Made by a program: the position numbers and the translations under genes. A DNA stretch of 64,000 nt. Source: Octopus vulgaris (lineage: Eukaryota). Where the stretch lies: assembly GCA_951406725.2 (NCBI GenBank), contig OX597815.1, forward strand, positions 193,688,001 to 193,752,000, in the 5' to 3' direction. The notes below the pieces were generated by a model. The model worked only from the letters and a program-made list of their open reading frames with translations, was not told where the DNA came from and made no database searches. Positions 10,748-60,229 of this stretch are shown piece after piece (position 1 is the stretch's first letter; each line of letters opens with the position of its first letter).

Positions 10748-10995
10748 ATGACAAAAAATCTAACGAGCCGGCGGCTGCTCCACCCGGATACGTTGAAAGC
10801 ACTGGGTATCCATCCCAACCTGGATATCCACCCCAACCTGGATATCCATCTCAACCTGGATATCCACCCCAACAGGGATATCCACCCCAACAGGGATATC
10901 CCCCACAAGCTGGATACCCCCCACAACCTGGTTACCCTTCAGCTTATCCAGTGCAACACCAACCACAAATGCAGCAACAACAACAAGCTGTTATT
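10748..10995 (+). CDS. CD225/dispanin gene A, Pro/Gln-rich N-terminal exon (phase 1 to phase 0)
   Basis: ttttacAG acceptor, GTAAGT donor; frame gives DKKSNEPAAAPPGYVEST(GYPxQx)7GYPSAYPVQHQPQMQQQQQAVI and splices in frame to 16433. The start codon must be in an unidentified upstream exon. Confidence 0.85.
10804..10947 (+). repeat. Coding 18-bp tandem repeat (GYPPQP-type hexapeptide, about 8 units)
   Basis: GGATATCCACCCCAACCT-like units in the exon frame. Confidence 0.9.
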
Positions 10996-11281
10996 GTAAG
11001 TAAATATTTTTCTTTTCATTTCAATTTTTAGTGTTCTACACCGATATATCCTAAACTGAGATCTTATATTTAGCTGATTTTTATACTGCATATGCACACT
11101 TTAATGGTATCACATTCCTTTATGGTATCACATGGAGCCTGGGTGTTTATATATGTGTATATATATATATATATATATATATTTATCAATATAGGGTAGC
11201 AAAAAATTCAGTAGAAATTATTTGCCACCAGCGGCCTAGTGGGAAAAAAGTAAATAGTCAGAGACTATTAATAAATTCGAC

Positions 11282-11725
11282 AGCAAAATTTAGGAACGAC
11301 CATAATAGGCCGTTCATCCCGCTAGAAATAGCAGCCAAGGCTTTAACCGCAAAAAAGGTATTAATTCCGTAAACCAGGAGAAAATTTAAAAAACATTTAC
11401 CCTGTAATACTTTATACAATGCATCGTTTCTTTTGTTTTTTAATGGTAAATCAGCCTGATTAAATTAAATCAAGCTAATCTTCCATAGGCCAACAAATTC
11501 ATCAGTAAAGTAAGCCAGAATGGACCGATATTTTCACGAGGCAGCACCAACTACTGTCTCGGCAATATCTGACCTAAAATTTTCAAATCATCGTACTCGC
11601 GCCAAATTTATCGGCAGCAAATATACGCTGCCGATTACGGAATTAATACCTTTTTTGCGGTTAAAGCCTTGGCTGCTATTTCTAGCGGGATGAACGGCCT
11701 ATTATGGTCGTTCCTAAATTTTGCT
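11282..11725. repeat. Perfect 91-bp inverted repeat inside a (TA)n-flanked element
   Basis: 11282-11372 is the exact reverse complement of 11635-11725. Confidence 0.9.
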
Positions 11726-12899
11726 ATATATATATATATATATATATATATATATATATATATATATGTATATAATAGAAATATGTTAAAAAAAGAAAAT
11801 AGAAACTGCACGTGGTAATGTGAGGAGAAAGAAAGAAAAATCAACGAAAATACACATTGTAAATAAAAAAAAAGTAAAGGCTTTTTACGAAAAGTAACGA
11901 AAGATATATACAATTGGATGAACTGAGGTAGGAATAAAAGTAATAAAAGTCATTATTGTGAGATTATTAAAGAGATTCGAGCATACCGACGGTTTCGTAA
12001 GTTACTATTCTTTGCTTTGAATGAATTTTCTTCACGCCGATATATATATATATATATATATATATATATATATATATATATATATATATATATATATATA
12101 TGTATAGGCGAGAAGAAAATGGGGGACAAATATCAAACAGAAGTGTGTCTTTTGCGCTAGTAAGCTATTATTTAATTCGTAAATAAAGGTGAGAGTGAGA
12201 GTGAAGTTGTTTACGATCGTTTCTGTTTACCATGGTGAGGAAAAAGAAGTGCATTTGGATATATCTATCCCTTTGTGGCTTTAAACATCTCTAACTTATA
12301 CCTGTATATATATATATATATATATATATATATATATATATATATATATATATACTTGGTTGATGAGAGATAGACGATGGAAGATACGAGAATTTTTATT
12401 AATCGCTGCAATTCTTTCGACCCATCTAGCATTGATCCCTCACGAGCGGAATACTTAACAACTGGATGAAGAACATCCGACGATGTTGATGTGGCTCTTC
12501 GGGTGATAAATAGATATAATTCGTTAAAATAACATTTTCGCAATGTATCTTCTCAGTTCATGTAAAGCAAAGCAGCAGATTAAAGGATATAGCTTCATTT
12601 ATATTGAAGATCAATGATAAAAAAATAACAGATGCAAAAATGAAACGAACACGCAATACAGCGATAAAAGTATTAAATATAACCGTTAACAGATATGGAT
12701 ATATAAACGCCCTCGTGTAGGTTGTACGGCACATGCACACTCGCTCATACAAGTATCCACGAAGATGTAAGCTTACGCACACGTATAGCTTGGCGCACAT
12801 ACGTTCACATAGCGAATTAAATAGCTACTTTACAAGAATGAGGAAGTTAGAGCTAAAGTTAATTCATTCATATCTTAAGGTGAATTATGATAAGCAATT

Positions 12900-13400
12900 A
12901 GGTTAACGGTTACTCAAATTCATTTCCACTGCATTGTGCGAAAGTGCATTTATATGCATGTAAGCATCTTGAGAGTCTTTCAGAAATTCTGAAAATGATC
13001 TCATTAGTCCACAGAATAGACAGGGATTCCTCGGAGCAGTGTCGGCACCTCCTGGAAACGATAATATATGGTTTTTGTGTGCCTTACTATGGATCCAAAT
13101 TATACTTAATTTTATCTCCCTGAAGTTGCCACACAAAATCAGACAAAGATGTTGAATGTCTCTTATTGATTTTCTTGAAACTGGCGACATGGTTGCAATA
13201 ACGATTCTTGAATGAATCAGCCGTTGCTCTAATGTAAAAATATGGCCCTCCCCTTGTGTGTACAGTACATTTATATACAAGATTTGTACTCATACAGAGG
13301 TTCATCAATGGGCATCTTGATTTTTCTCAGCATGCGCTTTTATTATAGTTATTTGTATATATGGCTGTTCTGACTTCATTTTCTGACGTATATATGAAAG
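12900..13400 (-). mobile_element. Penelope-like element GIY-YIG endonuclease remnant
   Basis: CPL..C..TNLVYKC..FYI..T..SFKNRYCNH..SF..STSLSDFVWQL pattern, frameshifted. Confidence 0.7.
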
Positions 13401-14351
13401 TTCTTAGAGGATAATTTAATGAGGGTGACAGGCCAAATCTATGTCTGGAGCAAAGTTTCTGCGACACCAATGTGACGTGGTAGTGGAACAATGAGATCAT
13501 AAATAACAGAAGAGACAGACTTAGAAATAGTGTAAAAGTAGAGGTAACAAAGAACTATATCATGTAGCTAGAAAGAAAGCCACGCAATAGGTTTGTCTAG
13601 CAAAAGCAGAAGCACAAAGGAAGAGATTTGCTAATGCCTTCTAACTTGAGGGCCAAAGACTAGACCTTGATGATGATGATCATCATCATCATGATGATCA
13701 TGATGATGATGATGATGATGATGACGACGACGACGTATGTGAGGGTGCATGTGTATGTGCACATGATAGGTTTCCTCACAGTTTCCATCAGACAATTCAA
13801 ATCAGAAGCTATTTGTCAACTGAAAACTATGGCAGAGCGGTAGCCTCGTGTTGATCAAGGTACCGTACAGTAGCTGTAGCCCATCTTTTATACCAAGACA
13901 AAACAATGCACATGATAACACTTCCAATCAGTTAAGATCAGGAGCCATGAGAGCCACTGTCTGGTACTTATTATTATTATCATTATCATTATTATTATTA
14001 TCATTATTATTATTATTATTATCATTATTATTATTATTATTATCATTATCATTATTATTATTATTATTATTATTATTATTATTATTATTATTATCATTAT
14101 TATTATTATTATTATTATTATCATTATCATTATTATTATTATTATTATTATTATTGATTATTATTATTATTACTACTACTACTACTACTACTACTACTAC
14201 TACTACTACTACTACTACTGCTGCTGCTGCTGCTGCTGCTGCTGCTACTACTATTACTACGACTACTACTACTATTATTATTATTACATTATTATTATTA
14301 TCATTATCATCATTATTATTATTATTATTATTATTATTATTATTATTATTA

Positions 14352-58170: not shown

Positions 58171-58229
58171 TTTATAAATACAAAAAGTAGAGGACATTTA
58201 TGAAGAATAGTAATTCATATAATTAATTA

Positions 58230-58765
58230 AAAACAAATGAGATGAAAGAATTGGAATGTGTGCAGAGTTTTCGGGGGCGGGAGTGTAAGGAATTGGCGTG
58301 GGCCAAGCGCACAGACCCAAAAGGCTCCTTCAGTATAGCAATGGCCACTTTTGGCAGTGCTGACATGTGTGATATCGTTGGTTTTTTTCGCCCAAGATTT
58401 ACTCAAAAAAAAGTTCCACTCCATAAGCTCTGGCTTCTTCGGGGATGACGTGCAGTAAATATCGAGACGGGCAAACTTCCATACACTCGATAGGCTTAGA
58501 AAGGTCTTCACCGGCACCATTGAATGCCCTTGAATTTAAAGTCACGAAAACGGTGGATTTCCTTGATGTGACCTTCGATTTGGAGTCTGGTGCTTATAGA
58601 CCCTTTAGGAAGCCGAATTTGAGGCTATCATATGTTGAGTCAGTTTCCTGTCATCCAGCCATACCATTCAGAAAGAGCGTCAGCAGAAAAATCTCCAAAC
58701 TATCGTCAAGCAAAGAGTCTTTTAACGACGACGCCCCACATTATAATGAGACCCCTGGGTCATGA
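58230..58765 (+). mobile_element. Penelope-like RT remnant (second clade)
   Basis: F..AM..F..A.MCDIVG, GDD and VDFLDVTFDL....YRPFRKPN...YV..S.HP. Confidence 0.75.
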
Positions 58766-59389
58766 ATAACCATGGAATTGCACCTAGAAAGTTCCCCTCC
58801 GAGGCATAAGTTCGGGCAAGGTTGCTTATGGAAGATCAGCAGTCGCCCACGCATACCAGCCTCCCCTCTTCGCGCCACTGATGTTATCCAAGGGAAACGG
58901 AAAGGCCGATACAGCTTGACTCCAGTGATGTCTCAACTCATATCTGCAGCTCAGTGAACTGGAAAAACATGAAATAAAAGTGTCTTGTTAAAAAAAAATT
59001 ACATAGCCTGGTCCAGGAATCGAACTTACTACCTCATGAGTGTGAGCCCGTTGCTCTACTTCTATTAATATAACCACTCTATTAACAAATATACAAGCGC
59101 ATATTTTTTCTGACTTATGAATTCATAGACGACTCTGTGTGTGTGTGTGTGTGTGTGTGTGTGCGTGTGCATAGTGTGTGTGTGAGTGGGTGAGAGAGAG
59201 AGAGTTTTTCTGTTTTTGCTCCATCACCACTTGACAACAGGTGTTACATACCCGTAACTCAACGCTCCATCAAAAGAGACCGATAGCATAAGGCTTTAAA
59301 GAAAAGAGGTACTAGGGTCGATTCGTTCGACTAAAATCCTTCAAGGTGATGCCCCAGCCTGGCCATAGTAAAAGATGAAAGATATGGGA

Positions 59390-59775
59390 ATGGAAGCACT
59401 CCGTCGGTTACGACGACGAGGGTTCCGGTTGATCCGAATCAACGGAACAGCCTGCTCGTGAAATTAACGTGTAAGTGGCTGAGCACTCCACAGACACGTG
59501 TACCCTTAACGTAGTTCTCGGGGATATTCAGCATGACACAGAGAGTGACAAGGCCGGCCCTTTGAAATACGGGTACAACAGTAACAGGAAGTAAGAGTGA
59601 GAGAAAGTTGTGGTGAAAGAGTACAGCAGGGATCACCACCATCCCCTGCCGGAGCCTCGTGGAGCTTTTAGGTGTTTTCGCTCAATAAACACTCACAACG
59701 CCCGGTCTGGGAATCGAAACCGCGATCCTATGACCGCGAGTCCGCTGCCCTAACCACTGGGCCATTGCGCCTCCG
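59390..59775 (-). mobile_element. tRNA-derived SINE (family D-like head)
   Basis: Head similar to 49440-49610; ends about 45 bp upstream of the exon acceptor. Confidence 0.75.
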
Positions 59776-59822
59776 CGATGAAAGATATAATATTCTCTCG
59801 ACTAATCAAATTTATTTTACAG

Positions 59823-60229
59823 GCGGCGTAGGAATGACGGAGATACCTCTTCATAGTCCACCGGACTATACGAAAAGCATTGCACCATCCGCCCCCGAAT
59901 ATACTGCAACTGAACATCAGGGAACTGAGACTCCGCAAGTTGAGCTACCCCAGATTGGGGTTCTTCGGGTACCTCAATATACACAGGCTCCTGGGCATCG
60001 ACCACCAATAAGCAATCCCCTACCAGCTGGATATCCCCCACCAACTACACATCAAGCACCATTTACACATCTTTCACCTCCTGGGTACACCCCATACTAT
60101 CCTGTGCAACAACAGCCATATGTACAGACCTATGCACAACAACAACAACAACAGCCATATGTACAAACCCATGTACAACAACAACAACAGCCCCAGCAAC
60201 AGCAACAGCAACAGCAACAAAGTGTGATC
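59823..60229 (+). CDS. CD225/dispanin paralogue D, Pro/Gln-rich N-terminal exon
   Basis: tttattttacAG acceptor and GTAAGT donor; 407 nt, phase 1 to 0 like 10748-10995; ..MTEIPLHSPPDY..GYPPP..PPGY..YPVQQQP..QQQQSVI ends like gene A (YPVQHQP..QQQQAVI). Downstream exons presumably lie beyond the window, so the family call is by paralogy. Confidence 0.75.

Follow-up and report, generated by a model that had tools for sequence, protein, structure and literature searches.

The CD225 array and its genes

The 64,000-nt stretch of Octopus vulgaris DNA analysed here (the window, C2:193,688,001-193,752,000, C2 being its contig in a genome of 2.8 Gb) is the right-hand part of a tandem array of ~850 kb that holds about 20 intact four-exon CD225 genes. 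The original prediction had proposed that the window contains at least four IFITM-like CD225 gene copies (A to D) belonging to a birth-and-death array in a cephalopod; the family, the cephalopod source and the birth-and-death array were borne out, with 20 intact domains and relics among them. DNA profile searches of 1.064 Mb around the window found 25 copies of the middle exon (24 full and one partial) and 21 strong and two weak matches to the last exon, which together span 192.98-193.82 Mb of C2. These profiles gave no middle-exon match and no strong last-exon match in the outer ~100 kb on either side of this region, and all 18 last-exon matches found genome-wide lay inside the array. An intact last exon accompanies 20 of the 24 full middle exons and completes an intact CD225 domain; the remaining four comprise copies B and C of the window, one orphan exon at 192.98 Mb and one copy at 193.55 Mb that is interrupted by a premature stop. 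Mean protein divergence among the copies is 59%, and intron sequence is common to 19 of the 20 intact ones. Elsewhere in the genome there are four further CD225 genes, with the domain encoded in a single frame.

A conserved promoter and first exon, the latter made of three residues and a phase-1 donor, occur in 20 places of the array, and database protein models begin with these three residues. The loop intron is in phase 0 in all 20 intact copies and lies between the two hydrophobic segments, a position given as a dispanin hallmark in the accessible text of PMC3282796. The proline-rich N-terminal exon ranges from 36 to 166 codons across the array, and PPxY-type motifs, one to nine each, are present in 14 of the 17 N-terminal exons counted. 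Part of the copy number might be an assembly artefact, with near-identical neighbours representing uncollapsed haplotypes: pairs 063/102 and 486/522 differ by 0.7-0.8%, units 486/522/554 align at 96-99.5% over tens of kb, and 100-N gaps lie at C2:193076893 and C2:193561873. However, this explanation, which we consider highly improbable, can remove two to four copies only; the remaining copies are 25-45% apart in their exons, and two further species have the array as well.

Gene A is intact and spliced. Contigs assembled from four transcript-like runs of four studies, presumed to be RNA though not recorded as such, omit its GT..AG introns exactly: the joint 10995>16433 was found in contigs of three of the four runs and the joint 16543>18783 in all four. 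The proline-rich exon, which has a phase-1 acceptor and a phase-0 donor, is covered by contigs of three runs, and one 1596-nt contig contains all three exons, the 3′ untranslated region (3′-UTR) and 156 extra bases upstream. As predicted, the middle exon matches the CD225 model over its cut-off; the last exon matches the second half of that model and is 84% identical to the O. bimaculoides protein P0002. The three exons first proposed for gene A, like all other elements named at first, were found in place with canonical splice signals, whereas the real gene has at least four and probably takes its start codon from elsewhere. The 187-aa reading lacks a start codon, and the conserved first exon suggests that an ATG exon 37 kb upstream, outside the window, is likely the first one, giving 191 aa. 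Two perfect or near-perfect repeats belong to this region: an inverted repeat within an intron (11282-11372 and 11635-11725, 91 bp, 100%) and a head-to-head inverted repeat just after the 3′-UTR (20018-20244).

Gene D is an intact gene model with predicted splicing. As its start codon has changed, translation would have to start from a methionine in the next exon. The splice phases and ending that D was said to share with A were confirmed. Its CD225 exons lie outside the window (C2:193755201-193755317 and 193763794-193763994): the middle exon is in phase, 7 kb downstream of position 60229, and matches Pfam CD225 at 31.5 bits, so that D would splice to a CD225 exon. The last exon is 57% identical to that of gene A and, taken alone, gave no Pfam CD225 match at E 0.01.

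Copies B and C are inverted copies of the middle exon of gene A with homologous intron flanks (E 6e-32 for B and 6e-29 for C), and alignment also recovered the inverted 3′-UTR homologue that had been noticed earlier. Searches with four profiles, at protein and DNA level, found no first, proline-rich or last coding exon for B and C on their strand, nor any genome-wide, and the last-exon profile had no match at the 3′-UTR relic of C (36201-36709). B and C as alternative exons or as full genes were ruled out on these grounds. Because both lack partner coding exons, the window contains two gene models (A and D) and two relics instead of the four or more genes envisaged at first (Table 1). A long palindrome near 36020 (35842-36200) adjoins the 3′-UTR relic.

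Table 1. Parts of CD225 genes and relics in the window (positions counted from its first nucleotide)
Feature	Position	Strand	Remarks
Gene A, remnants of first intron	9018..10300	+	9018-9178 and 10080-10300 common to other array copies; inserted repeats between
Gene A, proline-rich exon (second of four)	10748..10995	+	82 codons; PPQPGY-like repeats and poly-Q; one PPxY-type motif
Gene A, CD225 N-half exon	16433..16543	+	Re-entrant helix with Cys, Pro, Gly; Pfam PF04505 28.6 bits, above curated cut-off
Gene A, last coding exon	18783..18989	+	Cytosolic loop with GxxxG, transmembrane helix 2, stop; Pfam CD225 E 3.6e-4
Gene A, 3′-UTR	18990..19867	+	Contigs extend from 18783 to 19851-19867
Copy B, orphan CD225 N-half exon	29331-29224	-	Frame open; Pfam 26.8 bits; no partner exons found
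Copy C, relic 3′-UTR	36709-36201	-	78% over 354 nt, E 1.5e-74, plus a further piece; coding part of last exon missing
Copy C, CD225 N-half exon	38543-38437	-	107 nt; 1-nt deletion causing frameshift; pseudogene
Gene D, promoter and first-exon homologue	48713..49014	+	Start codon altered
Gene D, proline/glutamine-rich exon	59823..60229	+	Splice phases and ending as in gene A

Outside the window, at C2:193784402-193794480 (+), searches found no middle exon between an orphan proline-rich exon and a short degenerate last exon; the two may be another relic or encode a CD225-derived single-pass protein. In the outermost gene (C2:193807785-193824231, -), the N-terminus is acidic and Glu/Thr-rich and the intron flanks are unrelated; O. 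bimaculoides has a close counterpart of it (P0008, P0029), and it is possibly the oldest member. A 130-kb gap inside the array holds a 461-aa frame with a Myb/SANT-like domain (L053:1380-2765, -), likely transposon-derived.

The array proteins are PRRT1-type dispanins

Full-length relatives score 51-71 bits against Pfam CD225, and the conserved residues of the domain are kept in nearly all of the 20 intact copies (the cysteine in 20, the glycine and both alanines of A-X6-A in 19). The aspartate after the glycine (G-D motif) is retained in seven copies and replaced by asparagine in 11. The sole CD225 protein matched in the PDB was PRRT1/SynDIG4 (9zks chain M, E 1.3e-14), with which the array has a Cys-Phe-x-Pro-Thr-Gly-Ile motif in common. 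By itself this match cannot assign the subfamily; more weight comes from the helix-1 motif, the proline-rich exon and the protein tree. The tree was built from 65 rows and 72 columns, with 65 of 176 domains used and no named vertebrate sequence among them. A 35-row branch (91/96) united 19 of the 20 array domains, as two subgroups that each include O. bimaculoides members, with named PRRT1-like proteins of molluscs; the outermost copy fell elsewhere. The expectation that the paralogues group together was upheld by the intron sequence of 19 copies, which is the better evidence for local duplication; array monophyly in the protein tree was neither shown nor rejected (p-AU 0.116).

The predicted structure of the O. 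bimaculoides relative of gene A has helices at residues 2-11, 13-31 and 35-93 (pLDDT 80, pTM 0.45). Foldseek returned no match to this model at E 0.001, an Atlas search gave generic CD225 clusters only, and searches with longer proteins found nothing.

The domain and gene architecture thus identify the array proteins as four-exon, proline-rich dispanins of the PRRT1 type, similar to Dispanin C/D, and not as members of the IFITM family, to which the term IFITM-like had pointed. IFITM (Dispanin A) genes have two exons and a short N-terminus in the accessible text of PMC3282796. An R-SNARE-like zero-layer arginine, ten residues before the second loop glycine, is described for IFITMs in the accessible text of PMC11730294; with the position mapped by the R85/G95 spacing given there, none of the 20 array copies has it and 13 have asparagine. 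The loop glycine is present in 19 copies, and the complete GxxxG motif, reported in the available part of PMC7665892 to be needed by IFITM3 for oligomerisation, in 12, including A and D.

Members of the array occur in other octopuses

Array members were found in O. sinensis and O. bimaculoides, where each species' set lies on a long chromosome-scale contig and database names include dispanin family, PRRT1-like and annexin-like. Annotation in both species means that databases already list these genes and that the array is older than the species. The named relatives, 19 of 142 new proteins, include no squid or cuttlefish, a sample that gives no date for the array. The O. sinensis model P0004 matches the gene at C2:193.13 Mb with its N-terminus and the next gene, at 193.16 Mb, with the rest; it is a read-through or chimeric isoform, or an annotation artefact. 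P0019 had no close match in the O. vulgaris genome; C15:72052312-72052524 matches it weakly, with three stops (E 6.7e-4).

The literature search, which left subscription journals mostly outside, found no description of an octopus CD225 array, and the supplements of cephalopod papers, incompletely covered and probably without their large tables, gave no match to it. The array is a real, undescribed and unusually fast-diversifying set within a known family.

Exons diverge more than the introns around them

Comparison of the copies with one another revealed that their exons stand out as islands of divergence. In pair 009/037, unique non-coding DNA differs at 102 of 2015 sites (5.1%) and the exons at 38%; 9 of 20 synonymous sites differ as well, and identity falls at the exon borders. 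Four cross pairs showed the same pattern (11% non-coding and 37-41% exon divergence). Among 171 pairs examined, 121 had 300 or more alignable sites, and in 120 of these exon divergence exceeded non-coding divergence. In distant pairs the non-coding DNA that can be aligned is a biased sample, and therefore only pairs at 5-11% carry weight. Repeats as the source of intron similarity were rejected, since the similarity stayed after masking against non-array DNA. We infer that gene conversion or unequal crossing-over homogenises the introns while selection keeps the exons distinct. The exon islands would then be a clear case of divergence maintained against intron homogenisation.

Selection on the coding exons

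To quantify selection we used codon models on 20 copies and 72 gap-free codons, with our own code (M0 log likelihood -3375.35, compared to -3375.60 from IQ-TREE) and with branch lengths scaled, not refitted. The overall ratio of replacement to synonymous rates (dN/dS) was 0.81 under M0. About a quarter of the codons, near 0.15, form a fixed core, and about half are near 1; cysteine, proline, glycine and alanine make up the fixed core of the proteins. Model M2a was favoured over M1a (twice the log-likelihood difference, 2dL, 65.6), with 21% of sites at 3.5. This support was kept in seven variants, among them other frequency models and runs without the last 12 codons, with the last exon alone or without the two longest branches, and also when double-base changes were allowed (2dL 45.4). 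Seven of the 11 sites with posterior >0.9 lie in the outer half of helix 2.

Because the site test falls under rate variation, a model-free count in young pairs is more telling. Pair 009/037 was kept out of this pool on account of its old exons. The four pairs with the closest exons carry 31 replacements, compared to 14.7 expected from repeat-masked non-coding divergence (P 1.3e-4), and six synonymous changes, compared to 4.4 expected (P 0.28). The replacements cluster in transmembrane helix 2. In pair 343/364, nine of ten fall in codons 56-72, a stretch followed directly by a small indel, which may have influenced the last few of them. Exon-specific hypermutation was not supported: synonymous changes in the young pairs match the non-coding rate, and CpG ratios are alike (0.71 and 0.67).

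These results bear on whether the array could be a by-product of unstable tandem DNA, in which the work is done by one or two conserved copies, all others drift under constraint on the core alone, and the exon islands reflect conversion stalling at diverged exons. About half of the codons do fit a dN/dS near 1, the site test is weak under rate variation, gene A is conserved with respect to O. bimaculoides, relics such as B and C exist, and the expression evidence comes from gene A alone. However, 20 of the 24 full middle exons have kept an intact partner exon despite the mean protein divergence, replacements and not synonymous changes exceed the non-coding rate in young pairs, the drop in identity sits at the exon borders, and several orthologues in two further species have RefSeq models. 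We regard relaxed drift as unlikely.

Possible functions of the array

We tentatively propose that this ~850-kb array of about 20 PRRT1-type CD225 genes, whose exons exceed their introns in divergence, may encode membrane-embedded clamps that hinder pathogen entry or fusion and that arose independently of vertebrate IFITMs. The exon pattern would then reflect an arms race between host and pathogen, as in the vertebrate IFITM genes. This reading seems possible, if somewhat short of probable, and a pathogen as the selecting agent is its least certain part. By analogy with the PRRT1 and IFITM3 literature, the proteins would be of type II: the proline-rich tail would lie in the cytosol, one helix would be re-entrant and one would span the membrane. 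They would oligomerise through the loop glycines and contact partners through helix 2. The model of gene A's relative has three helices, which may agree with this scheme, but it had no structural match. PPxY motifs are linked to NEDD4-type turnover, and those of the array might control turnover in the same way. Conversion or unequal crossing-over would homogenise introns, and selection would keep the exons distinct and favour change in the outer half of helix 2. In the accessible text of PMC3499546, the immune IFITMs, but not IFITM5, are characterised by duplication, pseudogenes and positive selection. Because tandem growth, decay and replacement excess in the array are like those of immune IFITMs and unlike IFITM5, we rank defence first, adaptors second and relaxed drift third.

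Several observations weigh against a defensive role. To our knowledge, the nearest characterised relative, PRRT1, is an auxiliary subunit of receptors. The zero-layer arginine is missing, and the hydrophobic moment of helix 1 is modest (0.08-0.40, without an IFITM3 control). Promoters of the 20 copies showed no excess of sites like the interferon-stimulated response element (3/20, background 15%) or of kB-like sites (1/20, background 6%), and six of them have a site like the cAMP response element (CRE; background 2%, the copies not being independent). The evidence for selection also has its weak points: the middle exon alone gave the weakest variant (p 0.054), 2dL dropped to 4.3-6.8 (p 0.03-0.11) when whole-codon rate variation was allowed and to 4.4 (p 0.037) with class-specific synonymous rates, and conversion can inflate site tests for selection. 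Two young pairs, with 10 and 16 replacements, account for the replacement excess, which is absent from the other two of the four, unmasked non-coding counts raise the expected replacements to ~24 by our own arithmetic, and most changes in helix 2 exchange one hydrophobic residue for another.

Some of these points would suit auxiliary subunits or trafficking adaptors that are each specific to one client, in the way PRRT1 serves AMPA receptors: every paralogue would bind a different octopus receptor or transporter through helix 2, and diversification of the array would have accompanied that of its clients. PRRT1 is the only CD225 protein matched in the PDB and has the same helix-1 motif, members are named PRRT1-like in databases, the CRE-like promoter site fits, and most of the best-supported sites lie in helix 2, PRRT1's partner-binding helix. 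This helix is the contact surface for GluA1 and CNIH2 in the accessible part of bioRxiv 10.64898/2026.06.24.734257. On the other hand, conflict explains better than stable partners do why the replacement excess continues between copies only 1.2% apart and why at least four copies are broken, the PDB match cannot separate subfamilies, and the searched supplements of cephalopod neural atlases, probably without the full marker tables, contained no match. Adaptors appear rather unlikely to us.

Fast-evolving tandem membrane-protein families are common in reproduction, which would also suit a role in gamete recognition or fusion diversified by sexual conflict. CD225 proteins regulate membrane fusion, according to the accessible text of PMC11730294. 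Assembly of gene A in runs of four studies may speak against this explanation, and we find it quite improbable.

In its boldest form, the defensive reading holds that octopuses have drawn an IFITM-like arsenal from a PRRT1-type ancestor without vertebrate interferon, namely about 20 fusion restriction factors kept distinct by selection against conversion, with the outer half of helix 2 still being reshaped by pathogens. This version is doubtful; if true, fusion restriction would be a recurrent property of the CD225 fold and not an IFITM invention, and cephalopod antiviral immunity would gain a concrete locus. We know of no function established for invertebrate dispanins. With many paralogues that have a constant core and one hypervariable helix, and with sister pairs that are nearly identical outside this helix, a role of the CD225 fold outside vertebrates becomes testable.

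Other elements of the window

Between C and D lies an intact 720-aa hAT-type transposase frame with DUF4371 and hAT dimerisation domains (43147-45309, -). Reverse-transcriptase fragments of long interspersed nuclear elements are present at 961-2206, 6465-7556 and 40865-42190 (-); the copies 961-2130 and 40865-42036 are 98.7% identical, which indicates a young insertion. A 382-aa frame at 25701-26849 (+) has a CCHC zinc-knuckle-like motif and no Pfam match at E 0.01, and is probably the first open reading frame of a retroelement.

Comparison with known systems

Many dispanin genes are found in other invertebrate lineages, as in Octopus. Counts are on record for Aplysia (10; PMC9334734), amphioxus (12) and sea urchin (9; both PMC3282796), with further counts in PMC7653359; in the accessible text of these reports they come without array structure, selection analysis or function. 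In the sea cucumber Apostichopus japonicus, one chromosome encodes seven similar PRRT1-like proteins, which may form another independent array in an invertebrate.

PRRT1/SynDIG4 (Dispanin D1) and the PRRT1-like proteins of the molluscs Magallana, Physella and Solemya resemble the array in having a proline-rich N-terminus on its own exon, the same helix-1 motif and the loop intron; only the outermost copy (C2:193.81 Mb), which is acidic instead (P0008), departs from the first of these traits. Unlike PRRT1, the array has about 20 tandem copies instead of one, a dN/dS near 0.8 and no arginine at PRRT1 position 250 in any of 20 copies, and no receptor partner is known for it. If its members are adaptors, they would add to the protocadherin and zinc-finger expansions of cephalopods one that has been overlooked.

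The primate red and green opsin duplicates likewise have diverged exons between near-identical introns, a pattern of divergence peaks with gene conversion described in the accessible text of PMC3924837. The proteins are unrelated, the octopus pattern spans many copies, and conversion is presumed in the octopus array.

Compared to the vertebrate IFITM1-3 cluster, the array has four exons instead of two, a long proline-rich tail, a different helix-1 motif, no zero-layer arginine, no interferon-type promoter signal that we could find, and probably a separate origin. The two are nevertheless alike in their tandem birth and death with pseudogenes, in conversion, which is presumed for the array, and signs of positive selection, in the loop GxxxG motif that 12 of the 20 array copies carry and in the PPxY-type motifs of the N-terminus. 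If the array is defensive, it would represent a convergent IFITM-like system in a mollusc.

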